Assembly: GCA_016210055.1 (NCBI GenBank)
Contig: JACQUZ010000155.1
Span: 5,633-69,632 of the forward strand
From: Deltaproteobacteria bacterium
Lineage (GTDB): Bacteria > Myxococcota_A > Polyangia > Haliangiales > SHYZ01
Length of the DNA: 64,000 bases
Direction: 5' to 3'
The position numbers and the translations under genes were made by a program. Below are positions 9,824-61,376 of this stretch, piece after piece (positions within the stretch are counted from its first letter, which is position 1; every line of letters begins with the position of its first letter). Under the pieces are notes generated by a model. The model worked only from the letters and a program-made list of their open reading frames with translations, ran no database searches and was not told where the DNA came from.

Positions 9824-9896
9824 TGAGCCCAGCAGGGATCGAACCTGCGACCAACGGGTTAAAAGCCCGCTGCTCTACCGGCTGAGCTATGGGCTC
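9824..9896 (-). tRNA. tRNA-Lys (anticodon UUU)
   Basis: Manual cloverleaf on the minus strand: GAGCCCA TA GCTC AGCCGGTA GAGC A GCGGG CTTTTAA CCCGT TGGTC GCAGG TTCGATC CCTGC TGGGCTC A. 73 nt. Confidence 0.9.
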
Positions 9897-10006
9897 CCCT
9901 TCCGGTCAAGGCGTGTTTTCCTATCATTGCGGATCCGGCAAGTCAAGGCGCCTACGCCCGAGCGTAAATTTTTTCCTGGCTGCCCCATCGTGCTACTGTC
10001 GCTCCC

Positions 10007-44448: not shown

Positions 44449-45039
44449 GTCCGTGGAGGCGACAAGCGTGCTCGGATTCTCGAGTCCGCGTTGAAAGTAT
44501 TCGCCTCCAAGGGGTTCTACGCAGCCAAGGTAGCGGACGTAGCTGCTGAAGCTGGAGTCGCCGACGGGACCATCTACCTGTACTTCAAGTCAAAGGACGA
44601 CCTCCTCATCTCGCTCTTCGAGGAGCAAATGCAGCAGGTCAACTCGCAGCTCACCACAGCGCTCGTGGGCGCCATCAGTGCTACTGATAAGCTCCAGCGG
44701 TTTTTCAAGGCCTATCTCGGCATGGTCGAGACCCACCGCCATGCGACCGAGATCATCACCATTGAGCTCCGCCAATCGGCGAAGTTCATGAAGGACTACG
44801 CGAACCCTCGCTTTGCCGAGTTCCTGAAGCTCTTGGCCGGCATCATCGACGAGGGGCAAGCAAGCGGCACGTTCGTGAGTGGTACGCCACCGACGGTCCT
44901 AGCCCGCGCGATCTTCGGGCTTCTCGACGAGTTGGCCTTGATGTGGGTGACAACCAAGGGAGATAAGATCGACATCCGCAAGGCTGCCGATTGGGTCGGC
45001 AGGCTTGTGCTAGAAGGGCTCGAAAGGAGGAGTGCGTGA
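44434..45039 (+). CDS. TetR/AcrR family transcriptional regulator
   Basis: 201 aa. N-terminal HTH region (RILESALKVFASKGFYAAKVADVAAEAGVADGTIYLYFKSKDDLL). Confidence 0.85.
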   Translation: MNHHSVRGGDKRARILESALKVFASKGFYAAKVADVAAEAGVADGTIYLYFKSKDDLLISLFEEQMQQVNSQLTTALVGAISATDKLQRFFKAYLGMVETHRHATEIITIELRQSAKFMKDYANPRFAEFLKLLAGIIDEGQASGTFVSGTPPTVLARAIFGLLDELALMWVTTKGDKIDIRKAADWVGRLVLEGLERRSA

Positions 45040-45854
45040 AGATCCTCGTCACTGTGAAGCGGGTTCCAGACCCGGAAATGAAGCCAAAGTTCAAGGGCGC
45101 CTCGCTGGATCTTTCCAGCGCGAGCTGGGTGGTCAACACCTTCGACGAGTACGCCGTGGAGACAGCGCTACGCCTCACGGAAAATGGGGCTACGGGCGAG
45201 CGATTTGGCGAAGTCGTCGTGCTGTCCATCGGCCCCAAGGACGCTTCCCAGCAGCTTCGCTCGGCGCTTGCCATGGGGGCTGATCGCGCCATTCTTGTCG
45301 ACGCCCTCGACGAGAATCTCGACTCCGACTCGGTCGCACGTATCGTTCAGGCCGTTGTCTCGCGGGAGAAGCCCGATCTCCTCCTCATGGGCAAGCAGGC
45401 CGTCGACGGAGATGCCAACCAAGCGGGGCAAGTCGTGGCGGGGCTCCTAGGCTGGGCTCAAGCCACCTTTGCCGCCGAAGTAAGCCTGGCCGCTGATGCC
45501 AAGAGCGTCCTCGTTTCGCGCGAAGTAGACTCCGGCGTGGAATCCAAGCGCATCCCGCTGCCGGGTGTCGTTACCGTCGATCTCCGGATCGTGGCGCCCA
45601 AGGCGGTCAAGAACGGGAAGACCCCCGACTCGCACGCCTACGCGGACGGCCCTCGCTACGCGTCGCTCAAGGGCATCATGGCCGCGAAGAAGAAGGAGAT
45701 TAAGGAGCTCAAGCTCGCTGACCTGGGGGTATCCGTGACTCCAAAGGTCAAGTGGATCTCCGTCGAGCCGCCACCTGCGCGAAAGGCCGGCATCAAGGTG
45801 GGAGACGTGCAAGAGCTGGTAAAGCGCCTCCATGACGAGGCAAAGGTCCTGTAA
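45036..45854 (+). CDS. etfB: Electron transfer flavoprotein subunit beta
   Basis: The GTG start at 45036 overlaps the TetR stop (GTGA) and is preceded by AGGAGG. N-terminus VKILVTVKRVPDPE, and the LLLMGKQAVDGD motif. Confidence 0.9.
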   Translation: MKILVTVKRVPDPEMKPKFKGASLDLSSASWVVNTFDEYAVETALRLTENGATGERFGEVVVLSIGPKDASQQLRSALAMGADRAILVDALDENLDSDSVARIVQAVVSREKPDLLLMGKQAVDGDANQAGQVVAGLLGWAQATFAAEVSLAADAKSVLVSREVDSGVESKRIPLPGVVTVDLRIVAPKAVKNGKTPDSHAYADGPRYASLKGIMAAKKKEIKELKLADLGVSVTPKVKWISVEPPPARKAGIKVGDVQELVKRLHDEAKVL

Positions 45855-45869
45855 AGGAGCGGAGCGATC

Positions 45870-46838
<969 letters not shown>

Positions 46839-46874: not shown

Positions 46875-47657
46875 ATGCCTTTCGTCACTCAACCCACCTA
46901 TCGTATTCGCTATCGCGAGTCGGGGGAGGGGCGCCCTCCCCCACCCGTATTGTTCATCCATGGTGCCGGGGCCTCTTCCGCTGCTTGGATGGGAATCCTT
47001 TCCCGCGTCGGACGTTTCCGCCGCTCCCTTGCGTTCGATCTTCCGGGCCACGGACAGTCGACTGGCGCCGTATCTTCAGTCGACGAGATGCGTGACGCCA
47101 TAGGTGTCTCGGCGGCGAAGCTATGCCTTGGGCCATCCGTTGTCGTTGGGCACAGCCTTGGGGGACTCGTCGCCCTCTCGGCGGCGCTCTCTTGGCCAGA
47201 CAAGGTCGCTGGATTGGTCGTCGTGTGCGCCGGGGCACGCATGAAGGTCGCGCAACCGGTTTTCGATGTCCTCGAAAAGAGCTGGCCGGCCTGGCCAAGG
47301 CTCCTAGCCGAGACGGCCTACTCGCCTGAAACACCCCCCGACATCCGTGCCCAGGGAGCGAGCATCGCGGTAGCCGCCTCGCAGGCACAGACGACCGCGG
47401 ACTTCCGTGCCGTGGCCGAATGTGATCTACGTCACCGGGTGGGCCAGGTAGGAGCGATCCGCTGTCCAACCCTCATCGTGGCCGGGGGAGACGATTTCCT
47501 TGCCCCCGTCAAGTGGGGCGCTCTCCTCGCCGAGGCGATACCTGGCGCCAAAATCGCTCTGCTCCCACGCTGTGGCCACATGCCCATGCATGAACAGCCC
47601 GACGCGCTCGCTAAGGTATTGCTCGAGTTTCTGGGTGGCATCACGGCTCGAACGTAG
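46875..47657 (+). CDS. Alpha/beta hydrolase fold protein
   Basis: 260 aa. HG oxyanion motif (LFIHGAG), nucleophile elbow GHSLGG, and a C-terminal catalytic His (CGHMPMHE). Confidence 0.8.
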   Translation: MPFVTQPTYRIRYRESGEGRPPPPVLFIHGAGASSAAWMGILSRVGRFRRSLAFDLPGHGQSTGAVSSVDEMRDAIGVSAAKLCLGPSVVVGHSLGGLVALSAALSWPDKVAGLVVVCAGARMKVAQPVFDVLEKSWPAWPRLLAETAYSPETPPDIRAQGASIAVAASQAQTTADFRAVAECDLRHRVGQVGAIRCPTLIVAGGDDFLAPVKWGALLAEAIPGAKIALLPRCGHMPMHEQPDALAKVLLEFLGGITART

Positions 47658-47684: not shown

Positions 47685-48575
47685 ATGGCAACCATGGTGC
47701 CGTGGGTGGAGCGGTCCCTTAGAATCGCTGACGTCGAGATCTTGCTAAGATCGAACCGCGCCGAGCTCTTGGACGCGTTCTTCGCCCCGCTCAAGGGATA
47801 TGAATCCCCGGGCGCCCCCCCCGAGATCATTCAGCAGTACGTAGTGGCCTCAGGTTTCCGTCCATTCCTGCCTGCCGAGCGCGAGTACCCCGGATACAAC
47901 TTCCGCCCTGAAGTCGACGCGGACGGCAAAGCGGGAGCGTCCGCGCGCTATCTTTTCAGTCGCCGTGATTCTGGCGGAACCATCGAAGTTCCCGACGCTC
48001 CATCGGAACCAGTCGTAGGGACTTTTGAGGGGCGCGGAGCTCGGTCAGTGCTCGAGGCTACGCTTCGTATTTCCCTTTGCATGGCGCTCCTTAGGAATGG
48101 TGGCCTCATGCTGCACTCCGCGGGGGCTGCCGCTGCCAGTGACGAGGAAGCGCGCGTGTTCACGGGGCAAAGTGGTGCCGGCAAAAGCACGCTTTTTGGG
48201 CTGCTGCATGGCAGTGGTCTATTTCGACACATGCTCGGGGATGAGATGATCGTGCTCCGCCCCGATCCCGGGTCGCCCACAGCGTGGCGTGCCCACGCGA
48301 CCCCGTTCGGCGGCGAACGGGGTCCGTGTGCTCGTGCGAGCGCACCCCTTAGGGCCATCTATTTCCTCGAGAAAGCGCCTCACCACCGGGCTGTCCCGCT
48401 TCAAGGCCCACGCGTGGTGCCAGGGATCCTGCGTAACACCTTGGCCTATGTAGGCGACCGCGCCAATGCCGCTCGAGCCCTGGCAAGCGCCACGCGGCTC
48501 GTCAAGGACGTGGCGACCTATAGGCTTGAATTCCAAAAGGACGAACACGTGGTGAGCGTGCTTGGTCTCACTTGA
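47685..48575 (+). CDS. HPr kinase-related (HprK C-terminal-like) P-loop protein
   Basis: 296 aa. LLHSAGAAAASDEEARVFTGQSGAGKSTLFGLL resembles the HprK/P catalytic-domain P-loop (G-x-SG-x-GKS). The arrangement next to a PqqD-family gene matches the HprK-related kinase families described in peptide-modification neighbourhoods. Confidence 0.65.
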   Translation: MATMVPWVERSLRIADVEILLRSNRAELLDAFFAPLKGYESPGAPPEIIQQYVVASGFRPFLPAEREYPGYNFRPEVDADGKAGASARYLFSRRDSGGTIEVPDAPSEPVVGTFEGRGARSVLEATLRISLCMALLRNGGLMLHSAGAAAASDEEARVFTGQSGAGKSTLFGLLHGSGLFRHMLGDEMIVLRPDPGSPTAWRAHATPFGGERGPCARASAPLRAIYFLEKAPHHRAVPLQGPRVVPGILRNTLAYVGDRANAARALASATRLVKDVATYRLEFQKDEHVVSVLGLT

Positions 48576-48605: not shown

Positions 48606-48884
48606 ATGCACGAGGACAGTGTGATCACCTATCGACAGAATCCCCGGACCGCGGGGCGCGTAGTAGACGGATTGGCGTTTGTCGTCACCCCGGACGACAA
48701 CAAGCTTCACACCCTGAATGGCACGGGCGCGCTGATTTGGCAGCTTGCTGAGAATGGCTGCACCCTTGACGAGATCGTTTCGGCGATAACCAGTCGCTAT
48801 TCGGTAGAACCCGAGCGCGCCCGGCAGGATGCCGAGACGTTTGCGACCGACCTCCTCAGGCGCCGCATCTTGGAGACGCCATGA
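48606..48884 (+). CDS. PqqD-family protein (RiPP recognition element / peptide chaperone)
   Basis: 92 aa. Has the PqqD pattern: beta-strands (AGRVVDGLAFVVTPDDNKLHTLNGTGALIW) followed by helices (CTLDEIVSAITSRYSV...ARQDAETFATDLLRRRIL). Confidence 0.85.
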   Translation: MHEDSVITYRQNPRTAGRVVDGLAFVVTPDDNKLHTLNGTGALIWQLAENGCTLDEIVSAITSRYSVEPERARQDAETFATDLLRRRILETP

Positions 48885-50092
48885 TGGAAAACAGCGAGTC
48901 CATCAGCACCCAAGAGCAGGAGATGCCGGAGGTGCAAGCAGTCGGCCAGAAGCGATTCGCGGGGGAGATATTCGCCAAGGCGGCGAGCAAGGTCGGCGCT
49001 CCGGCTTCCGTGTCGTTCCGGGTGACGGATCGCTGTAATTACGAGTGCGTCCACTGCTATCAGACCCATGACGACAAGAACGAGCTCCGCCTCGATGAAA
49101 TTGACCGCATTCTCGGCGAAATCGCCGATGAAGGAGCGCTCTTCCTCACGTTCATGGGCGGCGAGTTCTTCATGCGGCGCGATGCGGACGCAATCCTCAT
49201 CGCGGCACGAAAGCGGAAGTTCGCGATAAAGCTCATGACAACCGGGCATCATGTCGATGACCGTCGGGCGGATCTTCTGCGTGATCTCGGCTCCATCCAG
49301 GTGGACCTGTCGCTCTACTCCTCGGATCGGCATGTTCATGATCAGGTAACGCAAGTGAAGGGCTCGTGGGAGCGAACCCTCGCTGCGGCCAATCGCCTGC
49401 GCGCCCGCGGTATCATCGTCGTACTAAAGTCTCCCCTCATGTCGATTAATGCGAGCACCATTACAGGTGTCGCGAGCATTGCCCAGGACATCGGCGCCAA
49501 GTTCACTTTTGATCCCAAGGTAACCGCTCGTGAAGATGGCGACCAAGGTCCCACATCGCTACGAGTCGACGAAGAAACACTAAAGGGCTTTTACGGTTCT
49601 GATTTCGCGGGAATTTGGGCGTTCATCAAGAATCGGTTCGGGCCTTCAGACGGAATGCCCGAGAAACCCTTGGACGCAACCCCATGTCGGGCGGGGAGCG
49701 CGATCGCTTCGATTAACCCCCAAGGCCTCGTTTACGCCTGCACTGCCCTTCCAATAGCGTGCGGCGACCTGCGAAAACAGAGCTTCCGTGAGGTCTGGCG
49801 CCATTCGCGACGGCTAGACGAAATACGAGGCCTTACCTGGGGGCAAATCGAGGAATGCAACCGCTGTGATGTACGAAAGTACTGCAAGCGGTGTCACGCC
49901 ATGGCTCTCATCGAGGACGGCAAGATGGATGGTCCTTCCACGGAGGCCTGCCGCCACGCCGTGGTCTTGCGTGACCTGCTCCGAGAGCAAGGACTAATCG
50001 ATAAGGCGGATAACGCAATGCCCGCCACGTTCGCGCGCGAACAACGCAACAAGCTGTCGATTCGTTCCTCGGCACTTCGCGTAGTCGGCTAA
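48881..50092 (+). CDS. Radical SAM enzyme with a C-terminal SPASM-type auxiliary cluster domain
   Basis: 403 aa. CxxxCxxC (VTDRCNYECVHCYQ). C-terminal Cys-rich region (CRAGSAIASINPQGLVYAC ... CNRCDVRKYCKRCHA). ATGA overlap with the PqqD gene. Confidence 0.9.
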   Translation: MMENSESISTQEQEMPEVQAVGQKRFAGEIFAKAASKVGAPASVSFRVTDRCNYECVHCYQTHDDKNELRLDEIDRILGEIADEGALFLTFMGGEFFMRRDADAILIAARKRKFAIKLMTTGHHVDDRRADLLRDLGSIQVDLSLYSSDRHVHDQVTQVKGSWERTLAAANRLRARGIIVVLKSPLMSINASTITGVASIAQDIGAKFTFDPKVTAREDGDQGPTSLRVDEETLKGFYGSDFAGIWAFIKNRFGPSDGMPEKPLDATPCRAGSAIASINPQGLVYACTALPIACGDLRKQSFREVWRHSRRLDEIRGLTWGQIEECNRCDVRKYCKRCHAMALIEDGKMDGPSTEACRHAVVLRDLLREQGLIDKADNAMPATFAREQRNKLSIRSSALRVVG

Positions 50093-50138
50093 TCGGCAGC
50101 CCAAACGCTGGCTGTAAAGGGAATAGGGGGAGTTGAAC

Positions 50139-53100
50139 ATGCGCCTGTCTCAATTATCACTCCGAGTTATCCTAGCCGGTTCAATGGGATTGGGAGTGCT
50201 CGCCTGTAGTGACGATCCCAAGGACCTGCGGACACTCAAGATCAAGTCGCCGACCTCAACGGGAGGCCCCGTCGAGCTTTGCCTCGATGAAGACGAGAAC
50301 ACCACGACGAGTGGTATTCAGTACAGCGTCCAGGTGGATGCGGATCATTTCAAGAACGGGGCGCTCGTTTCACTCCTGATCGATGGCAAGGTAGACAAGC
50401 AGCTCGATAAGGCGGTGACCGACGAGACAGTGACCTGGAGCGGGATTACGTTCGCGGCCGGCTCCCACACCATCCAGGTGAAATCACAGGATGGCAAGAT
50501 CCAATCAGAGACCATACCAATCCTCGTCAATGAGACCGCCCCAGCGGTCTCATTCATTTCCCCAGCGACTGGGGATACGCTAGGCATGGGAAAAGACACC
50601 GATGCAGGGACGGCAGGGCTGCAAGCGACCATTCGGGTTTTCGCTGCAGTCGCGGACGACCAGGAAGCGACCATTAGCGTTATTCCTCCTTCAGGCGGCA
50701 CCGCACCAACGTTGACGCCCGTCAAGGTCAAGAACCAAGAAGCCACTTGGGACAAGGTGACATTCAACAAGTCTGGCAAGTGGACCCTTACCGCGAACAC
50801 CAAGTCGGAGTGCGGAAATCCAGGCACCAAGAGCATTGACGTCCAGGTGGACCTCGACGCCGACGCGTGCACCATCGAGGTCGTACCCACGCCGGTTTCA
50901 AGGAAAGGGAAGCTCTTCTTGAACAAGGCGATGGATACCAATCCATCGGCAGGCTTCCAGGCAAGAGTCAACGTCGTGGCGTCCCAAGGGAGTCGGGTGA
51001 CGCTCCTTCAGAACGGCGCGGATAAGGGATCGATCATCGTCGGTACCACGGCGTTGGCGAACTACGACCTCACGCTCACGGAAGGCGAGCAGGTGTTTTC
51101 TGCTTCGTGTCGCGACTCCGCCGGCAATGAAAAAACGTCCAAGGATCCAGTCACTGTCCACGTGGATACGCAAGCACCCAAGTGCGAGATCACGGCACCG
51201 GCGGACGGCGCGATCCTCCATCCAGGCCTCGACGCGAACAAGGATACGCCTGACACCGACTTCGATATCACCGTCTCGGTCGACCCCGACGTGAACGGCG
51301 AGAATGTCTCGGTTTCCGTCGGCGGGGCAGCAATTACTCCGGTCAAGGAGGCCGCGGCAGGAACGGTTGCATACAGGAAGGGGCTAAATGCTCCCGGGAA
51401 AGACATCGAGGTCAAGGCGACTTCCAATGACCAAGCCGGGAACACCTGCCAGGATACGATCAAGGTCAATCATTACACCACGGGTTGCTCGATAGCGATC
51501 CTCGAGCCCACCCTGTTCACTTCGGACGCGAACGGCACCGTGTCCGGCGTCCAAGTCCCGGTCATCGTGCAGGTGGGTGACGAGTGCAAGGGGAAAGAAG
51601 TCTCGCTCTTTTGCGGCAACCAGCCGGTCAAGAAGGCCGCGGCCGATGGCAACACCGCCAAGGCGAGCTTTGAAATCACCTCATGTCCGACCATTGCCTG
51701 TGAAACGCAAGTCAAGTGCGTGGCGAAGGTGACGAGCCCGAGCACGATTGAGACCCAGTCGCTCGAGGCAACGATTACCACGGACACGGTCGCCCCGTCG
51801 GTGATCGTCAGCGTGGTTAACCCCGCCATTTCGTGCGGTTCTTCCATTACCAAGGACCAGGATATCGATCCCGATACTGACGGCGTGCAGATCAAGATCA
51901 TGCAGGACGGGTCGGATGCAGTCACGCGCTCGTTCAACATCACGACCGCTACCGCTGGTACCAAGAACGTGGCAGCAGACGTGGATAGGAGCGTTGTTCT
52001 CACGCTTGAGTCAGGAAAGAACACGATCGAGGGCAAGGCAACCGACTCGTCCGGGCTGGAAGGCAAGTCGAGCACTTGTTCCGTTACGCTGGCAAACCTG
52101 GCAGTGGCGTTCACCAAGCCTACGGACAACCAAGTGCTTGGGCCTGGAAACGACCTCATTCCGGGAGGTTCATTGGACTACAGCGTCTGTGGCACGTTTA
52201 GCTCGTCCCATGACACCACGACGGTGACCGTTCAACTCGACGGGCAGCCCCCTCTTACGGCAATCGTGGCGGTGGACAAGTCCTTCTGCGCGACCGTCAA
52301 CGGCATCGCTCGCGGAGCCCACAAGCTGAAGGCACAGGCAAGAGACAGCTCCAACGAGAACTCCGGAGAAGCAACCATCTCGTTCTCCGTCGATGATCAA
52401 GAACCAGGTGTGCCGATTGTGGTCGTCATGAAAAGCAACCGTCATTCGCACTCGGTGGAGCTGACCGCGACCGCTGATGACTTCCCAGGTGTTGACCGGT
52501 GCGTGTTAAAGCGTTCTCTTGATCCGATCGTGCTCGAGACCTTTGATGCCGCCACGACGGTCGCGACCTTTGAAGACGCCACGAACGACTCGACCCACAC
52601 CTACCCGGCGCCGAGTAACGACCTTAGAGATTGGTATTACGCCGCACGCTGCTACGACGCGGTAAACAACGGGTCCTTCCTGGGTACCGCGAATATTGAC
52701 ATGGGCTTCGAGAAGGGGCCACTCTTGGTTCCGGCGCCATTTCTTGACGCCAACATATCGAAGCCGCGCTTCGGGATGAGCGCGGCGAGCGCTGACCTCA
52801 ATAATGACACGTTTTTGGATCTGGCCGTGGGTTACACCGCTGCGGACATCGGTATCCACACCACGAAGCAGAACAACGAAGGGGCCGTCTATGTATTCAT
52901 GGGTGGAGCCGACGGCATTTCGTCCACTCCAAGCTTCGTCATCTCTGGGGATGCCGCCCAAACGAAGGGCGAATTCGGCTACGCGATCACTCGAGTCCGG
53001 TGGAACGCCGACACCATCGATGACATCGCGGTCGGTTATCCGGGCAAGTCCCAGGTGCTCATTTTCTTCGGCAGCGATACGACTTGGAAGCCAGGCGAAA

Positions 53101-54224
53101 GCATCACGGCTTACGACCATACGAATGCCAATGTCGTCATTGGGAAGGATACTACGACGGACGGCGCCTGGTATGGCACCATGGGCCACCGAGTCGAGCG
53201 GTTGGACTTTGACGGCAACGGTAAGGACGATCTCCTGATCTCGGCGTCCGGCGGTGATTGGAAAGGAGGTGCCTTCGTCCTGTTCGGCGGCAGCACAAAA
53301 CCAGCGGGTAGCGGCGGTCAGATCGGCATCGACCTGCCAACCGACCTTAGTCCTAGTACTGGAACGAACACCAAGGTTACTCGATTCACGTTCGCTTCCA
53401 TTACAGCGGACAATACTTTTCCGTCCTACGGGCAATCACTGGCGAACCTCGGCAAGCTAGGTAATGGAACGACCGCCGACAAGGAGGACGATGTCGCTAT
53501 AGGCGCCGAACCCTCGTCTTCCCACGTCGCAAACAATCCGTCACCCGAGGTATTTGTCTTCTACGGGCGTCCCGCCCCGGCAGATCCAAGCGCGTCCGAG
53601 GAAATCAAGTGGGGCGATGCGGACCAGAGGATTAAGGCCGCGTCATTCACGCCGGTCGTAACCCCCGATGGCGTGGTCGCAACATCCTATTTTGGCCAGG
53701 CCATCGCTTCGATTTCCGATCTCGACGGGGACGGGAAGCGCGACATCGCCGTTTCCACGGCATTGGGCGGTGGCGATCTTCATGGCATCATTAACATCGT
53801 TCCAGGCGGCATCAAGACGGATACCCAGGCGGTCCAGGATCTCGGCGTAGCAGCAACGTCGATCGTCACCATTACTGGTACCCGGTTTGACGAAGAAATC
53901 GGAGCTATGATTGCCAACTCGGGGACTGGACTCGGAAGCGACGTGGATGGGGATGGAAAGGAAGATCTCGTCACCGCCAATGCTGTACTTAGGGGCGGTG
54001 CATCTTACACAGCGGTCCGAGTGTTCCTCAACGCGAGCCTCAAAGGGAACCTGCTCGGTAGTCAAGCCGATAGCGTATTGCTCCCAACTACGGCGACCGT
54101 TAAGACAACATGGGCGCTCCCATGGTGTGGTGACCTTAACAAGGATGGACTCATGGACCTAGCGTGGACCGACCCCAGGAAAACGATTGGAGAAGCAGCC
54201 GGTTTCGTGCAGGTACTGTATTGA
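50139..54224 (+). CDS. Giant surface lipoprotein: about seven Ig-like repeats followed by a seven-blade FG-GAP (integrin-alpha-like) propeller
   Basis: MRLSQLSLRVILAGSMGLGVLAC is a lipoprotein signal. Repeated module starts are visible: ETAPAVSFISPATG, DADACTIEVVP, DTQAPKCEITAPADG, TTGCSIAILEP, DTVAPSVIVSVVNP, ANLAVAFTKPTDN. The C-terminal third has seven Ca-binding FG-GAP-like loops: DLNNDTFLDLAVG, NADTIDDIAVG, DFDGNGKDDLLIS, TTADKEDDVAIG, DLDGDGKRDIAVS, DVDGDGKEDLVTA, DLNKDGLMDLAW. The ORF track starts at TTG 50133; ATG 50139 is preferred. Confidence 0.85.
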   Translation: MRLSQLSLRVILAGSMGLGVLACSDDPKDLRTLKIKSPTSTGGPVELCLDEDENTTTSGIQYSVQVDADHFKNGALVSLLIDGKVDKQLDKAVTDETVTWSGITFAAGSHTIQVKSQDGKIQSETIPILVNETAPAVSFISPATGDTLGMGKDTDAGTAGLQATIRVFAAVADDQEATISVIPPSGGTAPTLTPVKVKNQEATWDKVTFNKSGKWTLTANTKSECGNPGTKSIDVQVDLDADACTIEVVPTPVSRKGKLFLNKAMDTNPSAGFQARVNVVASQGSRVTLLQNGADKGSIIVGTTALANYDLTLTEGEQVFSASCRDSAGNEKTSKDPVTVHVDTQAPKCEITAPADGAILHPGLDANKDTPDTDFDITVSVDPDVNGENVSVSVGGAAITPVKEAAAGTVAYRKGLNAPGKDIEVKATSNDQAGNTCQDTIKVNHYTTGCSIAILEPTLFTSDANGTVSGVQVPVIVQVGDECKGKEVSLFCGNQPVKKAAADGNTAKASFEITSCPTIACETQVKCVAKVTSPSTIETQSLEATITTDTVAPSVIVSVVNPAISCGSSITKDQDIDPDTDGVQIKIMQDGSDAVTRSFNITTATAGTKNVAADVDRSVVLTLESGKNTIEGKATDSSGLEGKSSTCSVTLANLAVAFTKPTDNQVLGPGNDLIPGGSLDYSVCGTFSSSHDTTTVTVQLDGQPPLTAIVAVDKSFCATVNGIARGAHKLKAQARDSSNENSGEATISFSVDDQEPGVPIVVVMKSNRHSHSVELTATADDFPGVDRCVLKRSLDPIVLETFDAATTVATFEDATNDSTHTYPAPSNDLRDWYYAARCYDAVNNGSFLGTANIDMGFEKGPLLVPAPFLDANISKPRFGMSAASADLNNDTFLDLAVGYTAADIGIHTTKQNNEGAVYVFMGGADGISSTPSFVISGDAAQTKGEFGYAITRVRWNADTIDDIAVGYPGKSQVLIFFGSDTTWKPGESITAYDHTNANVVIGKDTTTDGAWYGTMGHRVERLDFDGNGKDDLLISASGGDWKGGAFVLFGGSTKPAGSGGQIGIDLPTDLSPSTGTNTKVTRFTFASITADNTFPSYGQSLANLGKLGNGTTADKEDDVAIGAEPSSSHVANNPSPEVFVFYGRPAPADPSASEEIKWGDADQRIKAASFTPVVTPDGVVATSYFGQAIASISDLDGDGKRDIAVSTALGGGDLHGIINIVPGGIKTDTQAVQDLGVAATSIVTITGTRFDEEIGAMIANSGTGLGSDVDGDGKEDLVTANAVLRGGASYTAVRVFLNASLKGNLLGSQADSVLLPTTATVKTTWALPWCGDLNKDGLMDLAWTDPRKTIGEAAGFVQVLY

Positions 54225-54243
54225 CAGGAAAAGAGGAACTGCC

Positions 54244-54411
54244 ATGTCGAAAGTAGACTTATCGCCGCAAGGAAGTTCGTCGGAGCAAGGCAAGGCTCCT
54301 TATGAGCCCCCCGCAGTCATTTCCGATGAAGCGTTCGAAACACTCGCCCTCGCTTGCGGAAAAGTTTCTGACGTCCCTCCGAGCGATTGCACCGGAGATA
54401 ACGCGTCGTAG
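54244..54411 (+). CDS. 55-aa acidic peptide, candidate RiPP precursor
   Basis: MSKVDLSPQGSSSEQGKAPYEPPAVISDEAFETLALACGKVSDVPPSDCTGDNAS. The ATG is preceded by AAGAGGAA at a 6-nt spacing and lies 20 nt after the giant gene's stop and 8 nt before the peptidase gene. The track lists it only as a longer ORF starting at 54187, which overlaps the upstream gene. Confidence 0.5.
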   Translation: MSKVDLSPQGSSSEQGKAPYEPPAVISDEAFETLALACGKVSDVPPSDCTGDNAS

Positions 54412-54419
54412 AAATAAAC

Positions 54420-54833
54420 ATGCCCCCTCTCCCTGACTCGGCCCACTTGCTCCTCGTCGGCCAGCTTCTGCGTCAACGTGGATGGTGGGACGTGACCGTC
54501 ACAACCGGGTCCATGCGGCCAACCATTCCCGTGGGCGCGCGGGTTCGCGTCGTAGCATCCAACCGGGTCAAGCTGGGAGAAGTCGCGGCCCTTGCCATTG
54601 GGGATCGCGTGTACATTCACCGGGTATTGGCCAGGTTCCCGACACCCATGGGCACAATGCTCGTGCACGGCGGAGACGCGCCGCAGGCGCTACCCAGTTT
54701 CGTTTTTGAATCACGCCTCATCGGTCGAGCCGATGTTCCTAGGAAACGGATCTCCGTGCCCAAGCGATTGGCGAGCCTGGCAAGGGCTGCACTTGTCTAC
54801 TTGAGACGACGGCGAGCGCACGTAGCGCCGTGA
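54420..54833 (+). CDS. Minimal S26-family (signal peptidase I-like, Ser/His type) peptidase
   Basis: 137 aa. Catalytic Ser motif TTGSMRPTI, GDxV-like segment (IGDRVYIHRVL) with the HRV His motif typical of archaeal/ER-type S26B enzymes, and a basic C-terminal tail. Confidence 0.6.
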   Translation: MPPLPDSAHLLLVGQLLRQRGWWDVTVTTGSMRPTIPVGARVRVVASNRVKLGEVAALAIGDRVYIHRVLARFPTPMGTMLVHGGDAPQALPSFVFESRLIGRADVPRKRISVPKRLASLARAALVYLRRRRAHVAP

Positions 54834-54896
54834 GACCTAATCCAAAGGCCAAAACAGGAAGGCCCCCAAAGGGGGGCGTCTGATATACTCGGGTCA

Positions 54897-55874
54897 ATGT
54901 CTCTTGTCGCCGCGCATCCTCGCCCGGCCCCCACTGAGGCAATAGGCGCGCTCCGCCAGGTCGAGGAGAGCATGGGGCACGTCGTTCGTGGGAAGCCCGA
55001 CGCGATTCGATTGGCCCTTTCTGCCCTCTTGGCTAAGGGGCATCTGCTCATCGAAGACGTCCCCGGGGTAGGAAAGACTACCCTCGCTCGCTCTCTCGCC
55101 CGCTGCCTGGGCGGAACATTCAGGCGAATTCAGTTCACGAGCGATCTCCTGCCTTCGGACATCATCGGGGTGTCTGTGTTTGACCAGAAATCCGGGCGCT
55201 TCGAGTTTCGTCCCGGGCCGATCTTTGCGAACGTCGTGCTCGCCGACGAGATCAATCGGACAACTCCACGCACTCAATCATCACTCCTGGAAGCCATGGC
55301 CGAGGGGCAGGTCTCCGTCGACGACAGGACCCACCCCCTCGATCAGCCGTTCTTTGTCATTGCCACCCAGAACCCACAGGAGCATTACGGCACGTATCCC
55401 CTGCCCGAATCGCAGATGGACCGATTCCTCCTGCGAATTCGCCTCGGGTATCCCTCACTCGACGATGAGCGGCGAGTGCTCAGGGAACGCGGCGGTGGGG
55501 ATCCCGTGGATACGCTGCGCCCGGTGCTGCAGCTGGATGTCCTCCGGGGTCTTCAGGGGATGGTTGATCAGGTACGCGTGGACGATCGGCTGCTCGATTA
55601 CGCCATGCAGCTCATTACCCAAAGCCGGAAGAGCCAGCACCTGTCACTCGGGGTTTCCACTCGCGGCGGCATCGCCTGGTACCGCGCTGCGCAGGCCCAC
55701 GCACTCGCCTGCGGGCGGGATTACTGCGTGCCCGACGACTTCAAGACGCTGGCCAGCCCGGTGCTTGCGCACAGGGTCGTCCTGGCGTCGCAGCACGAGT
55801 CCCTTGGCCGCGCCCGCGAGGAAAGTGAGAAGATCATAGGAGATCTGCTCGATCGCGTTGCGGTACCGACCTGA
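54897..55874 (+). CDS. MoxR-family AAA+ ATPase
   Basis: 325 aa. Walker A GVGKTTLA, Walker [10 protein letters not shown], followed by [12 protein letters not shown], the AAA_3 signature. Confidence 0.9.
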
Positions 55875-55923
55875 GCCCCACCCCCATGTTCGTGCCATGC
55901 CAGGTACAGAGCGTCGAGTGGGC

Positions 55924-57060
55924 ATGCAAGCGCTGAAGAAGTGGTTCCGGCCACCGCGACGCCTCAAGATCATGAGGGAGGGCAAGTACTTCATTGCCAT
56001 TACCATTGGCATCGGCTTTGCGGCGATTAACACCGGGAACAACTTGCTCTACCTGATTCTCGGCTGGCTTCTCTCGGTCATTATCGCGTCCGGCATCATG
56101 AGCGAGCAGGTGCTCCGTGGGCTGCGGGTGTCCCGAGTGCCTCCTGCATCCCGCTATGCCGGGCGCCCATTCCTCATGGGCATTACGCTCAAGAACGAGA
56201 AGCGCCGAATTCCGTCCTTCTCGATCGAGGTGGAGGATCTTATCGACGAAAAGCCGCTCGACAAGAAGTGCTTCTTCTTGAAAATTCCGCCGGGACGCGC
56301 CCAATCCACAAGCTACCGCCACGCGTTCTCACGACGCGGACTCTATCGTTTTCAAGGGTTCCGCCTGTCGACCAAGTTCCCGTTCGCGCTCTTTCGCAAG
56401 TCCAGGGATATCGACCTGCCGGGTGAAATCATCGTGTATCCAGAGATCTACCCGCTCCCCACCCCTGCCCCTGCGGCGACACATGGCGGCGACGAGGAGC
56501 GAGCCCGGCTGGGCCGCCGGGGCGAGTTCTTCGGGCTCCGTGACCTCCGGCAGGGAGACGATCGCCGCGACGTGCACTGGCGTTCGACCGCACGAATTGG
56601 CCGGATGATGGTGCGCGAGTACGAGGAGGAGTCACACCGCCGGGCTACCGTTTTCCTCGACAACGGTCTCCCAGAGAACGCCTCCCATGAGGATCGCGAG
56701 GCGCTCGAACGGGCGATCAGCCTGGCTGCATCTCTAGCCAAGTGCTTCCTCGAGCAGCAGTACGCAGTTCGCTTGGTTACCCGTGGCGGGCAAGTCCCAT
56801 CAGCATTAGGGCCAACTCACTTGGTCAGAATCCTGCGCACCTTGGCACTGCTCGAGTCCACGCCCCTTGGCACGCCTTTCGCCGGCACACCCGACCGAGG
56901 GGCAGACAACACGCTCGTCGTCCGGCACGGGCAGGCACCTTCCGCCTCACCCATGGGGATGAGCCGGGTTCTGGTCGCCCCGAGCCCGACCGAAAAACGT
57001 GCGAGGCCACCGTCAATTGAAACCAAGCTCCCGGCGAGCGGGATTGTCATGGTCGGCTAA
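55924..57060 (+). CDS. DUF58 domain protein
   Basis: The start is moved to ATG 55924 (MQALKKWF...). It has two N-terminal TM helices and the DUF58 motif FGLRDLRQGDDRRDVHWRSTAR. Confidence 0.85.
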   Translation: MQALKKWFRPPRRLKIMREGKYFIAITIGIGFAAINTGNNLLYLILGWLLSVIIASGIMSEQVLRGLRVSRVPPASRYAGRPFLMGITLKNEKRRIPSFSIEVEDLIDEKPLDKKCFFLKIPPGRAQSTSYRHAFSRRGLYRFQGFRLSTKFPFALFRKSRDIDLPGEIIVYPEIYPLPTPAPAATHGGDEERARLGRRGEFFGLRDLRQGDDRRDVHWRSTARIGRMMVREYEEESHRRATVFLDNGLPENASHEDREALERAISLAASLAKCFLEQQYAVRLVTRGGQVPSALGPTHLVRILRTLALLESTPLGTPFAGTPDRGADNTLVVRHGQAPSASPMGMSRVLVAPSPTEKRARPPSIETKLPASGIVMVG

Positions 57061-59300
57061 TGCGATTCCGTGACATTCACAAGCTCTCGAGTTACTTGAT
57101 GGTGATTGCCGCCTATGCCGCCGTCGCATTTTCCGACGAGCTCGGGACGTTGACGGTCGCTCTTGGAGTCGTCGGAATCGCCATTAGCTGGTTTTGGGAG
57201 CCGCCCCGTGTTCGGCCAGACCGCTGGACGATTGCGTGGAACATCGCGGCCATCTTCGCCCTCGTCTATACCTTCCTGTCGGTGATTGGGGGCGGAGGTG
57301 TCGTCGACTCCTTTGCCCGTTTCTTGGTTTTCCTACTGGTCGCCAAGCTCTTCTCCCGCGTGACGTCGAGGGATTACCTCTGGTGCTACGTGCTGGCCTT
57401 TAGTCTCCTCACCGCGGGGAGCGCGCTAAATGGCGACTTGAGCTACGCCCTCTGCTTCCTGGCGTTTGTCGTTTTCGCGACCTGGGCGCTCATCCTGTTC
57501 CACCTGCGCCGGGAGATGGACGAGAACTACCTCCTCAAGCATGCAGACGACGCGAGCTCCGAAAAGGTCGAGGTAGAGCGCATCCTCCTCTCGCGGCGCA
57601 TCGTGGGTCCAGCTTTCTTGGTAACCACTTCGACGGTTTCTCTCGCGATCTTCTTGGGCGCTTCGCTCATGTTCTTCCTGTTTCCGCGTGTCGGTTTCGG
57701 CCTCTTCTTTCAGAAGTCCCGCTCGGGCCTGTCGATGGCGGGCTTCTCCGATGGAGTGAGCCTCGGTGGTCACGGCGTCATCCGCGACGACCCACGAGTG
57801 GTCATGCGGGTTACGATGGGTGACAAGCCAGACCAGGGAAAGTTCGTTCCTCCGCTCCATTGGAGGGGCGTAGCATTCGATTACTATGAGGGCGGGCAAT
57901 GGTCTCGGTCACCGGCGGGACATCCGACGAGGTTCGTGGAGCACCGCACGGGGACTGGCAAGTCGATTTTCATCTCCATGAACGACCGTGAACCCGATCC
58001 CAAGCAAGCCAAGCGTGGGCTTAGGCAAGAGATATACCTCGAGCCCATTGACACCACGGTGCTTTTCGGCGCATCGATGCCCGTGCGAATGGATCTCGAC
58101 CTGCCGCGATTCGGTGGGCGAATGAGCCGACCGGGTTGGGGATTGAATGGCGAGATCCGGTTTCCGCACTCCGCCGGAATCAAGTATGTCGTCACCTCGG
58201 ATGTGAACTTGCCGAAGGAAGATCTCCTCAATCAGTCCCCGAGCACGCCCCCCGGGAAGATGACCCCATACCTGCAACTGCCGAGGGAGCTCCCTCCACG
58301 CGTCATCCAGCTCGCGAGGTCAATTACCGAAAAGGCAACCACTCCGTTCGAAAGAGCAATGGCCATTAAGAGGTTCCTGCTCGCCAATTACAGGTACACG
58401 CTCAAGCTCCACGACGAGGCGGGGCGAGAGCCGGTCGATGACTTCCTCTTCGAGCGAAAAATGGGCCATTGCGAGTACTTCTCGACTGCGATGGCGATTC
58501 TTCTTCGGGCAGTGGGTATTCCTTCCCGCAACGTGAACGGTTTCTACGGCGGCGAATGGAACGAGTACGGCAATTACGTTGCCGTCCGCAGCGGGGACGC
58601 GCACTCCTGGGTGGAGGCTTGGTTCGAAGGCGTTGGCTGGGTCACGCTCGATCCAACGCCACCGGGGGCGGTCTCACCTTTTGGGCGACGCGGCGACTCC
58701 ATCCTGGACGAGATGCGCCGCATGGTCGACACCCTTCGCCTGCAGTGGTTCAAGTGGATCATCGAGTACGACTTGGCGCGCCAGGTGGGGATGTTCAAGA
58801 AGGCGGCAGAGTGGCTGACTCCATCAAAGGGGGGTGGACGAAGGGGTGCGGCCACGGTTGGTGGTTTTCTCAATCAGCACAAGCGCACGCTATCCTTGGT
58901 CCTCGTCGGTGGTGCAGTCCTCGCCGTCGGGGGGACCATTCTGTGGCGTCGCCGCGACATGCGGCTTTCTCTGCGACTCGGCAGTGGGCGGGCGCGGGTC
59001 CATCCCGTGACGGCGTTGTATCTTAGGACGGCCGCATTTCTTGCTCGCCGGGGGTACAGGCGGCCCGAAGGTCGGACCCCGAGAGAGCATGCGGCCAAGC
59101 TATGCGAAAAGGGGATTCCTGGTGCGGTGGACTTTGCAGCGCTGACCGAGATGTATTACGCGGCGCGCTTTGGCGAAGGCGCTGCCCTGGCACGTGCGGT
59201 GAAGGTCGAAGAGGCTCGCCGCCTGGCCGAAGTGGTTCGGAAGGCCATCCGCCGTCCCCGCGCAGCGGGCGAGCCGATGGTCAATCGCGCCACCCACTGA
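57060..59300 (+). CDS. Transglutaminase-like membrane protein (TgpA-like: DUF3488 + transglutaminase core + DUF4129-like tail)
   Basis: 746 aa. N-terminal polytopic region, Cys-His-Asp core (KMGHCEYFSTAMAILLRAVGIPSR; GDAHSWVEAWF; VTLDPT), and a C-terminal TM followed by an Arg-rich helix. The TAATG overlaps the DUF58 stop. Confidence 0.85.
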   Translation: MRFRDIHKLSSYLMVIAAYAAVAFSDELGTLTVALGVVGIAISWFWEPPRVRPDRWTIAWNIAAIFALVYTFLSVIGGGGVVDSFARFLVFLLVAKLFSRVTSRDYLWCYVLAFSLLTAGSALNGDLSYALCFLAFVVFATWALILFHLRREMDENYLLKHADDASSEKVEVERILLSRRIVGPAFLVTTSTVSLAIFLGASLMFFLFPRVGFGLFFQKSRSGLSMAGFSDGVSLGGHGVIRDDPRVVMRVTMGDKPDQGKFVPPLHWRGVAFDYYEGGQWSRSPAGHPTRFVEHRTGTGKSIFISMNDREPDPKQAKRGLRQEIYLEPIDTTVLFGASMPVRMDLDLPRFGGRMSRPGWGLNGEIRFPHSAGIKYVVTSDVNLPKEDLLNQSPSTPPGKMTPYLQLPRELPPRVIQLARSITEKATTPFERAMAIKRFLLANYRYTLKLHDEAGREPVDDFLFERKMGHCEYFSTAMAILLRAVGIPSRNVNGFYGGEWNEYGNYVAVRSGDAHSWVEAWFEGVGWVTLDPTPPGAVSPFGRRGDSILDEMRRMVDTLRLQWFKWIIEYDLARQVGMFKKAAEWLTPSKGGGRRGAATVGGFLNQHKRTLSLVLVGGAVLAVGGTILWRRRDMRLSLRLGSGRARVHPVTALYLRTAAFLARRGYRRPEGRTPREHAAKLCEKGIPGAVDFAALTEMYYAARFGEGAALARAVKVEEARRLAEVVRKAIRRPRAAGEPMVNRATH

Positions 59301-59456
59301 GACCGTTGACCTCCTTGCCAAAAAGTCACTCGCACGAGACGGGAACTGCCACCCTGTCACGACATTGCCGCCAGGTGATTGGGCGTGCTAGTAGTTATCG
59401 CTAAGTCAAGCCGCCTGGCGCTGCCAGGCATCCTCCTTGCAGGCAAGGGTCTCGAC

Positions 59457-61376
59457 ATGCGTAGATGGGTATCGATATTTCTCGCCTTGGTTTTCTCTGC
59501 TCCTCTTTCGCCGGGGGTGGCGTGGGCGGTGGAGAACGCTGCGACCATTAAGATTGGGGAGTTGAAGGACGGCAAATTCACGGAGTTCACCAATCAAACC
59601 CAACTGGATGAGTTCTTTAATCGGGCGAATTGCCTATGTGCCACAAAGCAAGTGGCGCTGGAAATCGAAGCCACAAGCGACCTGCCGACAGATGTCGATG
59701 ATGGAGCCAGCGTTGTCCTCTGGGCGGGAACCGAATGCAACAAGGCCTCTAATGAAGTAGATCGAAAGAAGACCTGCCGGAAGCTTGGCATTGAGTTGTT
59801 TACCGTTGGCGAGCTAAGGAAAGCAAAGGTCACGAAGTCAGTCACGGTTGGCCCACTTGTACAGCGCCCCGAAGATGAGGTTCTGGACTGCAGTGGACAA
59901 AGAGACCTAGCGGTCTTTGCTCTTATCGACACTGGCGGTGACGCGACGCCTGAGCACTTCGGGCAGTCCGCCAAGGTCGGATACGATGGCGATCCGCCAA
60001 CCCAGCCTAGCTCGACCACGGCTGAAGCCGGTAGTTCCAGCATCACGGTTTCAGGAAGTAGCGTCGCGACGACTTCGGACATCTTTATCCAGGTGCTTTG
60101 CGCGAAGGCCGACGGTACTTCAGTCTTCACCGATAATAAGACGGACGCGAAGTACGAGCTAAGCGAGCAGACCTGCCAAGTCAAAGACGAGAAGCTCACG
60201 CTCCCACTCTCCTGCACCAAAGAAGACGCGGCTGTATCGGGTGGCACGAATGGGGATGCGGGGGTCACTGGTGTAAAGAAGCTCAACGAGCTCGACAAGG
60301 ACTTTGTCTGCAGCGAACGAACACAAGGCACCACCGCGACGATCAACCTCCAAGGCTTGGACCTAGACCCCAACGAGAAAATCCTCATTCGCGCTATTTA
60401 TACTGACGCTGCACTCAACACCGTGGCCTCCTGCGTGAGCGCCGTGCAGCTCACGCCATCGAGCGGCTTCTGGGGCGAATACCAAAAGGACGGCGGCCTG
60501 GCTGAGGAAGGCTGCTCCTTGGCCCCGCCAAGGCGTGCGCGTGGGCGCTCCCTCCTCGGAGTCCTTGCGCTCTTTGCGGTCACGGGCGTCGCATGGCTCG
60601 CGCGCAGGCGGCGGCTCAAGGCGAGGCACATCGTTCCGTTTCTCCTCGCAGGGCTCGCCGCCAGCACCACGAGCACTGCCCGCGCCCAGGTATTCATTGA
60701 AGAGGGATATCCCGCCGCAGAGCAGGCCCGTGTTTCCACCTCGGTATTCGAGGTGAAGCTCGGACCCTACTTCCCCGACGTCGACAAGGAAGACGCGCTG
60801 GTCCGCGCAGGAAAGACCCCGTACGAGACGTTCTTTGGCGACGACTCCTCCCTGATGACCCAAATCGAATACGACCGGTTCTTCCTCTGGCCCGCTGGAC
60901 AGCTCGGGATAGGGCTAGGCGCCGGTTACATGCAAGAATCCGGGGACAACTGCAAGCTCGTCGGTGGCGTCAGCAACTGCTCCCAGCGCGTCACGGCCGA
61001 CGAAACGATCTTCCACCTGATTCCCCTGCACCTGTCCGCGGTGTACAGGTTCACGTACCTCGCAGATAGACGCTTTTTCCCCGTGGCGCCTTACGGAAAA
61101 ATCGGCTTGTCCTACTACATCTGGCTGATCCGCGACGAAGCTGCAGGAGGAGACGCCGAAGGTGCCACCCTCGGCTGGCAGTGGTCCCTCGGCCTCACCC
61201 TCCGCGCCGACGACCTCGACCCCGGGGCGACGCGAAACCTACGCAACGACTTTGGCGTGGAGCATGCCGGCTTCTTTGCGGAAATGACCAAGGCTACCGT
61301 CGACGGCCTAGGTCAGGAGCGCAAGCTCTCCGTCGGCGATTTCACCTGGTCCGCGGGCGTCAACTTCGAGTTTTAG
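59457..61376 (+). CDS. Composite ORF: secreted Cys-containing domain with an internal MYXO-CTERM-like motif, fused in frame to a beta-barrel-like C-terminal domain
   Basis: The start is set at MRRWVSIFLALVFSAPLSPGVAWA, a signal peptide. The internal segment EEGCSLAPPRRARGRSLLGVLALFAVTGVAWLARRRR has a GC motif, a TM helix and an Arg cluster. It is immediately followed by LKARHIVPFLLAGLAASTTSTARAQ, which looks like a signal peptide. After that comes a domain with alternating strands ending in ...SAGVNFEF. Confidence 0.65.
   Translation: MRRWVSIFLALVFSAPLSPGVAWAVENAATIKIGELKDGKFTEFTNQTQLDEFFNRANCLCATKQVALEIEATSDLPTDVDDGASVVLWAGTECNKASNEVDRKKTCRKLGIELFTVGELRKAKVTKSVTVGPLVQRPEDEVLDCSGQRDLAVFALIDTGGDATPEHFGQSAKVGYDGDPPTQPSSTTAEAGSSSITVSGSSVATTSDIFIQVLCAKADGTSVFTDNKTDAKYELSEQTCQVKDEKLTLPLSCTKEDAAVSGGTNGDAGVTGVKKLNELDKDFVCSERTQGTTATINLQGLDLDPNEKILIRAIYTDAALNTVASCVSAVQLTPSSGFWGEYQKDGGLAEEGCSLAPPRRARGRSLLGVLALFAVTGVAWLARRRRLKARHIVPFLLAGLAASTTSTARAQVFIEEGYPAAEQARVSTSVFEVKLGPYFPDVDKEDALVRAGKTPYETFFGDDSSLMTQIEYDRFFLWPAGQLGIGLGAGYMQESGDNCKLVGGVSNCSQRVTADETIFHLIPLHLSAVYRFTYLADRRFFPVAPYGKIGLSYYIWLIRDEAAGGDAEGATLGWQWSLGLTLRADDLDPGATRNLRNDFGVEHAGFFAEMTKATVDGLGQERKLSVGDFTWSAGVNFEF

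Follow-up and report, generated by a model that had tools for sequence, protein, structure and literature searches.

Here we analysed a stretch of 64,000 nucleotides (the window) from contig JACQUZ010000155.1 of a deltaproteobacterial assembly (GCA_016210055.1), focusing on a short open reading frame (ORF) at 54244..54411 and on the genes around it, all of them on the forward strand. The block starts with a P-loop kinase of the ScmC type and HprK/PEPCK fold (47685..48575, locus tag HY698_18770), followed by a discrete PqqD-family protein (48606..48884; Pfam PqqD E 1.4e-16), i.e., a recognition element (RRE) for peptides that are made by the ribosome and modified after translation (RiPPs). The gene of a radical S-adenosylmethionine (radical SAM) enzyme of the PqqE/SkfB-like group (48881..50092; Pfam Radical_SAM and SPASM) overlaps the PqqD stop codon with its start. 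A 1363-aa FG-GAP repeat lipoprotein (50133..54224; Pfam FG-GAP), which carries the lipoprotein-type signal MRLSQLSLRVILAGSMGLGVLAC (…GVLAC), lies between the radical SAM gene and the short ORF, our candidate precursor gene. The block ends with a cytoplasmic leader peptidase that resembles signal peptidase I of the endoplasmic reticulum (ER)/archaeal type (S26B-like; 54420..54833).

The short ORF has 55 codons and reads MSKVDLSPQGSSSEQGKAPYEPPAVISDEAFETLALACGKVSDVPPSDCTGDNAS before a TAG stop. A Shine-Dalgarno-like AAGAGGAA, read directly from the sequence, is found at 54231..54238, with 7 nt between its GAGG and the ATG. The stop codon of the 1363-aa gene upstream (54222..54224) leaves a gap of 19 nt to the same ATG, while the next gene starts at 54420, 8 nt past the TAG. 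An earlier reading of this DNA, made from its letters only (the sequence-only reading), had already singled out a 55-aa peptide with two Cys and a terminal Ser, a ribosome-binding site at proper spacing and a tight gene layout, and both the translation and the coordinates agree with it. It had also described the ORF as hidden inside a longer one, and indeed a TTG-started frame of 74 aa (54187..54411) contains it and runs into the upstream gene; the additional N-terminal residues of this longer form are unmatched in the homologues. The public protein collection has no called gene for either form, no curated model matched the peptide in Pfam and NCBIfam scans, and the profile of the family gave no match in the PDB.

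Searching with the single sequence retrieved seven small homologues (50–59 aa) that share PYEPPAV...FETLALACGK and the terminal Ser. A profile of these seven, run against 1.84 billion representatives, matched 611 proteins at E<=1e-3 (26 at E<=1e-10), which correspond to 611 clusters at 50% identity and are nearly all 47–90 aa long. Residue counts given below refer to the 155 best representatives of the 611, less than 50% identical to each other. The family signature is Y-x-x-P-x7-F-E-T, then (L/M)-A-L-(A/S/T)-C-G-K, followed by another Cys and, at the C-terminus, by Ser. Within it, every member has the Tyr and Pro of YxxP, 154/155 keep the spacer P-x7-F and 133/155 have FET. The segment that follows FET is 22 residues long in the median, with Ala at position 2 (149/155), Leu at position 3 (143/155), one of A/S/T/G at position 4 in most members and Cys at position 5 (153/155). 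Exactly two Cys are present in 148 members and 150 of the 155 end in Ser, while the tail of this segment is hypervariable in both sequence and length. Accordingly, we divide the peptide of the window into a leader of residues 1–33 (54244..54342), with a variable N-terminus (1–18), the YxxP motif (Y20–P23, 54301..54312) and FET (F31–T33, 54334..54342), and a proposed core of residues 34–55, LALACGKVSDVPPSDCTGDNAS (54343..54408), with Cys38 at 54355..54357, Cys49 at 54388..54390 and Ser55 at 54406..54408 as translated. This boundary follows the cleavage after T-1 of FET known from a homologous protease, LppS (see below). The polar, leader-like N-terminal half proposed by the sequence-only reading thus survives as a leader, with YxxP as RRE-binding motif, and not as a generic polar region, the conserved block being YxxP-x7-FET. 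With the boundary after T33, the ACGK that it had pointed out falls inside the core.

A DNA comparison across loci indicates that synonymous sites are saturated (pS ~0.8) and that the protein is constrained, very unevenly along its length: pN/pS is 0.79 for residues 2–18, 0.31 for residues 19–33, 0.10 for LALACGK and 0.73 for the tail. The loci were partly collected via the motif, which makes the motif part of this selection test partly circular; the profile search, which is not motif-based, gives the same invariant residues. The ORF is therefore a real gene, widely conserved and under purifying selection. The sequence-only reading had made its candidate depend on conservation of the reading frame, and the frame is conserved. 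Several members depart from the standard form. Locus L028 carries two tandem precursor genes (9758..10114), with cores ...LALACVKADTQCAPAPGGTVLQS and ...LALACTKADTQCAPPVGVAALQS, and one protein of the profile search (P0115, 131 aa) consists of four tandem repeats of MFETEAIACGLTMPPLTESQGVE, which may be a related multi-core precursor or an assembly artefact. At L022 (9941..10252) the peptide frame continues ~27 residues beyond the end of its relatives (…GGGTARRS LQGRL…), which could reflect a lost stop, a sequencing error or a real extension.

A genome scan with one genome per species gave 40 loci, from metagenome-assembled genomes (MAGs) throughout. The hosts are Haliangium and Kofleriaceae (Myxococcota), many Terriglobales (Acidobacteriota), and further MAGs labelled Proteobacteria/Pseudomonadota (including one Kiloniellales) or just "bacterium". 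Hidden Markov models built from the neighbours themselves served to count these in 44 loci (the window is one of them), over a range of 9 kb from the peptide gene. The ScmC/HprK-like kinase and the radical SAM/SPASM enzyme were each present near the peptide gene in 38/44 loci, the PqqD protein and the signal-peptidase-like protease in 34/44 each, and a nucleotidyltransferase of the NTP_transf_5 family in 28/44; absent neighbours are mostly explained by truncated contigs. At least three gene orders exist. The window has kinase-PqqD-rSAM-(FG-GAP protein)-peptide-protease (rSAM, radical SAM), Acidobacteriota have peptide-protease-kinase-PqqD-rSAM with an ATP-binding cassette (ABC) ATPase and an ABC-2 permease in front, and other loci have PqqD-rSAM-peptide with the kinase a few kb downstream, or kinase-PqqD-rSAM-peptide. 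The linkage persists despite rearrangement across phyla, which argues for a functional unit. It is evident that the peptide gene is associated with the kinase, radical SAM, PqqD and protease families, and the tie to the first three holds across phyla and gene orders.

Some loci differ in content. L013 and L040 are orphan precursors (match at ~10007..10120 in each), with kinase, PqqD, radical SAM and protease absent within 9 kb; L040 shares its MAG with the complete locus L035, which suggests that extra precursors can be supplied in trans. Two Haliangium MAGs (L005 and L007) have no discrete PqqD ORF within 10 kb, with kinase, radical SAM, peptide and protease present, and at L004 the PqqD gene is found ~9 kb upstream of the peptide gene. 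The divergent locus L045 (6049..16789) has kinase-PqqD-rSAM-peptide-protease-NTP_transf_5 inside an exopolysaccharide locus (Wzz, Wzy_C, glycosyltransferases), and its peptide (MQKKTWVRPHLRSERVQETLARPACQF...AFS) has WxxP, QET and a single Cys. Another divergent locus, L047, is arranged as PqqD-rSAM-peptide-kinase-protease and has the peptide ...IYTAPSV...ALMSICKGG...GGGS; its protease (2756..3193) has GYCMRP in place of the family G-x-SM-x-P, i.e., Cys instead of the catalytic Ser, with the HR motif retained.

The linear polyphosphorylated peptides (LPP) of Bacillota, made by LppA/B/K/S/N/D, provide a counterpart for part of this gene set (Popov et al., Nat Commun 2026;17:6633, PMC13381572). 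The leader motif of their precursor LppA is YxxPxVLxHQxIxFETxxS, the system also includes an NTP transferase (PF14907) and an MsbA-like exporter, and it works without a radical SAM enzyme, none being mentioned in the paper or its supplements (PMC13381572). LPP was described as restricted to Bacillota; a supplementary table of the same work does list signal-peptidase homologues of Acidobacteriota and Myxococcota in unstudied network clusters, some of them with "other" RREs and with no precursor assigned (PMC13381572). The PqqD protein of the window has the LppB chain 9x8z_B as its top match in the whole PDB, and BLASTP against LppB gives 29% identity over 65 aa (E 1e-10). The crystal structure of LppB with the leader (PDB 9x8z) has N33 fixing the kink of the leader at its Pro, D70 in a hydrogen bond with the Tyr of the leader and F74 stacked on that Pro (PMC13381572). 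The equivalents in the window are N38, D75 and F79, kept in 34/34, 34/34 and 30/34 family members, respectively. On the peptide side, Y20-E-P-P23-A-V...F31-E-T33 corresponds to the YxxPxV...FET of LPP, with a YxxP-to-FET spacer two residues shorter here, and the alignment of the peptide profile with LppA (YxxPxV.S..(2-residue gap)FET; hhalign E 0.12, 20 columns) is not significant alone. Binding of the leader by the PqqD protein through Y20-x-x-P23 would be the first step of maturation and is well supported by these comparisons.

The sequence-only reading had named the adjoining gene just as a peptidase, and its identity can now be given as an ER/archaeal-type signal-peptidase homologue of LppS. 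Single-sequence PDB searches with the kinase and with the protease returned noise only, and family profiles were needed to obtain matches. The protease profile matches human SEC11C (E 2.2e-10) and SEC11A (E 2e-9), and aligns with LppS over 106 columns (hhalign probability 98.5%, E 3.9e-15). S31, H67 and D86 are invariant, and the gene is located directly 3' of the peptide gene in 34/44 loci. LppS, with catalytic S29, H68 and D93, cuts after the Thr of FET, only with LppB present; mutations of F-3, E-2 and T-1 impair the cut and mutations of core residues 1–5 do not (PMC13381572). By homology with LppS, which is FET-dependent, cleavage after T33 appears probable; the protease, aided by the PqqD protein, would act in the final step, cutting after F31-E32-T33 and releasing the 22-residue modified core.

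Our initial idea was instead that the protease obeys the AxA rule known from signal peptidases and cuts after the A-L-A that ends at A37, by which the core would start at Cys38. Both ER-type and bacterial signal peptidases favour small residues at -1 and -3, and the family offers them, with Ala at core position 2 in 149/155 and A/S/T/G mostly at position 4. However, LppS cuts with Phe at -3 and is sensitive to F-3, E-2 and T-1 and not to the first five core residues, and the would-be -1 position is occupied by Q, M or R in some members. We downgraded this alternative because of the LppS cleavage data and now regard it as unlikely.

The kinase of the window has sub-threshold NCBIfam matches to HprK_rel_A and ScmC (TIGR04249), and all 11 of the 11 family kinases tested match ScmC, HprK_rel_A or HprK_rel_B, always below the trusted cut-offs. 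A protein identical to that of the window (P0157) carries Pfam PF27840. The AF2 model (pLDDT 91) retrieved PEPCK (E 3.5e-8) and HPr kinase 1knx (E 3e-4) with Foldseek. In the family alignments all members have H144 and the Walker A motif G161-x-SGAGK167-T, and all or nearly all have D186; E187, which follows D186, is near-invariant in one of the two alignments (A3) only. The spacing of these residues resembles the His-Lys-Asp-Asp set of lasso-peptide kinases, and in the linear precursor it is the C-terminal Ser that paeninodin-type kinases phosphorylate. In the third step the kinase would phosphorylate the hydroxyl of C-terminal Ser55 in the same manner. We favour Ser55 as the kinase target because the family conserves no other hydroxyl, and the LPP acceptor position, +3, is Leu here; by analogy with the lasso kinases, its phosphorylation seems somewhat more plausible than the opposite. 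The sequence-only reading had compared the terminal Ser with the residue modified by paeninodin-type kinases, and its conservation in 150/155 is what would be expected if such a kinase acts, the modification itself being proposed by analogy. A more distant PF27840 kinase was found in a lasso cluster, L049 (5103..9870), with an Asn-synthase-like cyclase, kinase, PqqD and B2 protease; the candidate precursor there has a WxxP leader motif (WQKPEL) and ends in ...SDSELYS.

The radical SAM enzyme has C52-x3-C56-x2-C59 and the complete set of SPASM cysteines. Its best PDB relatives are PqqE (E 1.6e-13) and the sactisynthase SkfB (E 8.4e-12), and at the level of families it matches PqqE-like SPASM enzymes in a generic way, with the best scores for NirJ2, AhbD and PqqE. 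With the leader bound by the PqqD protein, this enzyme would in the second step modify the core at the two invariant Cys, intramolecular thioether links of the sactionine type being the most likely outcome of such a reaction. Cys is the likeliest radical SAM target because the five LPP precursors compared have neither a radical SAM partner nor Cys, and the peptide family has both. The sequence-only reading had suggested crosslinks of Cys with nearby Asp or Thr, and this does not hold as a family feature: among 153 cores, 59 have any Asp/Glu and 17 have C-x3-[DE]. A freyrasin-type Cys-Asp ranthionine was accordingly rejected as family-wide chemistry, the acidic acceptor not being conserved. Aromatic residues are present in 64/153 cores (Trp in two). 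As neither acidic nor aromatic residues are conserved, Cys, Lys7 and aliphatics are the sole conserved core side chains, and a thioether from Cys to a backbone or aliphatic carbon is a tentative proposal, to which we give slightly less than an even chance. Alternatively, the radical SAM enzyme may epimerise residues or modify aliphatics or Lys.

Taken together, the leader motif, the RRE and the protease are, as judged by sequence comparison, homologous to those of the LPP system, and the catalytic residues are intact in all enzymes. We consider it very likely that the ORF 54244..54411 encodes a RiPP precursor for the PqqD protein, radical SAM/SPASM enzyme, ScmC/HprK-like kinase and signal-peptidase-like protease of the same strand block. 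Apart from its Cys-Asp/Thr pairs, the sequence-only reading is thus supported as far as comparative genomics can go. The order of steps given above is the one we infer, and in most relatives the NTP_transf_5 enzyme and the ABC-2 exporter would act later, after the protease. The whole would represent an undescribed, radical-SAM-containing relative of LPP in soil Acidobacteria and Myxobacteria, with the chemistry we infer here.

Several observations weigh against this interpretation. In the window, a 4.1-kb lipoprotein gene stands between the peptide gene and those of the kinase, the PqqD protein and the radical SAM enzyme, an ABC exporter-type pair is found only ~8 kb upstream and is not contiguous, and no NTP_transf_5 (PF14907) homologue was found anywhere in the 64 kb. 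In 10 of the 44 loci, all of them MAG-derived, no discrete PqqD gene was found within 9 kb. The similarity between the peptide and LppA is at the level of the motif only. PqqE, NirJ and MftC-type enzymes, to which the radical SAM enzyme is closest, do not form thioethers. Finally, the HprK-like kinase of LPP, LppK, polyphosphorylates core Ser3 (PMC13381572), i.e., it acts at Ser+3 and not at a terminal Ser, and position +3 is Leu in the peptide studied here.

One alternative is an LPP-like pathway in which only the kinase and the protease use the peptide as substrate, the target of the radical SAM enzyme being something else, e.g., the large secreted protein next to it or a small molecule. LPP systems do function with no radical SAM enzyme, the peptide gene repeatedly has large secreted repeat proteins beside it, and the radical SAM enzyme of the window scores best to the heme and PQQ (pyrroloquinoline quinone) enzymes NirJ2, AhbD and PqqE. 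Nevertheless, linkage to the peptide gene is no looser for the radical SAM gene than for the kinase gene (38/44 each), the radical SAM gene is usually translationally coupled to the PqqD gene, acidobacterial loci keep it without any FG-GAP gene, and the invariant Cys are found in the family linked to radical SAM enzymes and not in LPP precursors. We therefore see this as improbable. Just below it in our estimate is a second alternative, by which the peptide gives rise to a cofactor or another intracellular small molecule, similar to PQQ or mycofactocin, rather than to an exported modified peptide. In its favour are the PqqE/MftC-like nature of the radical SAM enzyme and its pairing with a discrete PqqD, a core whose start and terminal residue do not vary, which is also true of MftA and PqqA, and the electron-transfer flavoprotein (ETF) genes located just upstream in the window. 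By contrast, the core tail is hypervariable in sequence and length, acidobacterial loci have an adjacent ABC-2 exporter pair, the contexts with a kinase, with NTP_transf_5 and with polysaccharide loci have their parallel in how exported lasso peptides and LPP are tailored, and the ETF genes are not conserved neighbours. Lastly, a chance ORF, short ones being frequent in GC-rich DNA, or a small lipoprotein or secreted protein with the lipobox-like L-A-L-A-C as lipobox, can practically be dismissed, since there are 611 homologues under purifying selection (this conservation had already refuted the chance version), the residues that precede LALAC are acidic and hydrophilic and lack the hydrophobic core of a signal, and the family is linked to RiPP enzymes.

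With the peptide regarded as a RiPP precursor of the whole enzyme set, its relation to known systems can be outlined. Shared with LPP are the leader YxxPxV...FET, a discrete LppB-type RRE that keeps the residues holding Tyr and Pro, an LppS-type Ser/His/Asp leader protease, an HprK-like kinase (judged here by family models and fold) and, in most related loci, an NTP_transf_5 gene and an exporter. The exopolysaccharide setting of L045 also resembles the capsule-locus context reported for LPP in Bacilli. On the other hand, a radical SAM/SPASM gene is linked here in 38/44 loci, core +3 is Leu (143/155) and never the conserved acceptor Ser of FETxxS, and two invariant Cys and an invariant C-terminal Ser are present, neither of which appears in the five LppA sequences compared. 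The core is ~22 aa long here and 45 in LPP, the hosts are Myxococcota and Acidobacteriota, and the exporter of acidobacterial loci is of ABC-2 and not MsbA type. Thus, the peptide is recognized, freed of its leader and tailored by a kinase in the manner of LPP, but the system falls outside LPP as defined, because it has no Ser+3, includes a radical SAM maturase, lacks the NTP transferase in the window and occurs in non-Bacillota hosts.

Paeninodin-type lasso peptides (PadeK, ThcoK, PsmK) have in common with it the PF27840 HprK-like kinase, the PqqD RRE and the C-terminal Ser of the precursor, and differ in that a serine leader protease and a radical SAM enzyme are found here; a lasso peptide was rejected, since phmmer with one lasso C protein (the Asn-synthase-like cyclase) and one B2 cysteine protease found nothing in the 64-kb window. 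Sactipeptides and ranthipeptides (subtilosin AlbA, SkfB, PapB) also combine a radical SAM/SPASM enzyme, an RRE and a Cys-containing core. In our family, however, the RRE is discrete instead of fused, there are just two Cys and no conserved Asp/Glu acceptor, a kinase and a signal-peptidase-type protease are added, and the thioether is putative. PQQ and mycofactocin (PqqA/D/E; MftA/B/C) share the small precursor, the discrete PqqD-type chaperone and the SPASM radical SAM enzyme, whereas our family lacks the conserved Glu/Tyr or C-terminal Val-Tyr, has a variable core tail and comes with a kinase, an exporter and a signal-peptidase-like protease. The SynChlorMet cassette ScmC/ScmD/ScmE/ScmF (NCBIfam TIGR04248-04251) contains the same trio of ScmC-like, PqqD-like and PqqE-like radical SAM/SPASM proteins. 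The window scores 17.3 bits against ScmC (trusted cut-off 125), 32.9 against ScmD (100) and 89.2 against ScmE (400); as an equivalog the cassette was rejected, with scores far under the trusted cut-offs that set the two apart and a single radical SAM gene in the block, without the second (ScmF). To our knowledge, going by the NCBIfam descriptions, no precursor has been identified for the SynChlorMet cassette. In the library searched, no paper combines HprK with PqqD, SPASM, radical SAM or RiPP, and searches for the motif ETLALAC and for SynChlorMet gave no relevant match.

A broader proposal, which in our view could go either way, is that the peptide family stands for a new class of RiPPs that is widespread among Acidobacteriota and Myxococcota and in which a radical SAM/SPASM enzyme would crosslink a two-Cys core, an HprK-type kinase phosphorylate the terminal Ser, an NTP_transf_5 enzyme decorate the phosphate in most lineages and a cytoplasmic ER-type signal peptidase remove a lasso-like YxxP leader. 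If so, the family would also provide the missing substrate type for ScmC/PqqD/radical SAM ("SynChlorMet-like") cassettes. An unannotated ORF of 55 codons becomes a testable substrate for four enzymes whose partner was previously unknown in these phyla. The LPP logic (RRE, signal-peptidase-like protease, HprK-like kinase) extends beyond Bacillota to the abundant soil Acidobacteriota and Myxococcota, and is combined there with radical SAM chemistry. The contrast between LPP (no radical SAM enzyme, no Cys, Ser+3) and the peptide family (radical SAM enzyme, two Cys, C-terminal Ser) leads to falsifiable predictions of the residues used by each enzyme, and the hundreds of members, with a fixed LALAC-G-K...C...S scaffold and a hypervariable rest, suit genome mining and engineering.

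Regarding the remaining genes of the window, the position of the FG-GAP lipoprotein is also filled in the myxobacterial-type loci L003-L006, L012 and L022 and not in acidobacterial ones, and its membership in the pathway is uncertain. Other large secreted repeat proteins flank the peptide gene at L001, with 879-aa, 445-aa and 753-aa (FG-GAP/UnbV_ASPIC) proteins, and at L016, with a 1209-aa CHB_HEX_C/Fn3_assoc protein. A GC-rich hairpin, GCCCCCAAAGGGGGC (54862..54877), found between the peptidase and MoxR genes in a terminator-like scan as a consensus match only, is a possible operon end. The unit that comes directly after the protease gene (54897..59300), a MoxR AAA ATPase, a DUF58 protein and a TgpA transglutaminase (57060..59300), has the same order in L003 and looks like a separate generic module. 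Upstream, the ABC ATPase and ABC-2 permease pair (38797..40640, same strand), ~8 kb before the kinase gene, is homologous to the pair directly in front of the peptide gene in acidobacterial loci. The ETF beta and alpha genes (44991..46838) are followed by an alpha/beta hydrolase (46875..47657) immediately upstream of the kinase gene; the alpha subunit has a sub-threshold match to the mycofactocin-associated ETF model, and neither the ETF genes nor the hydrolase gene are conserved beside other loci. Further downstream (59379..61376) is a gene for an outer-membrane beta-barrel protein of the MXAN_2562 family, whose N-terminal part is MXAN_2561-like; it suggests that the window is of myxobacterial origin.

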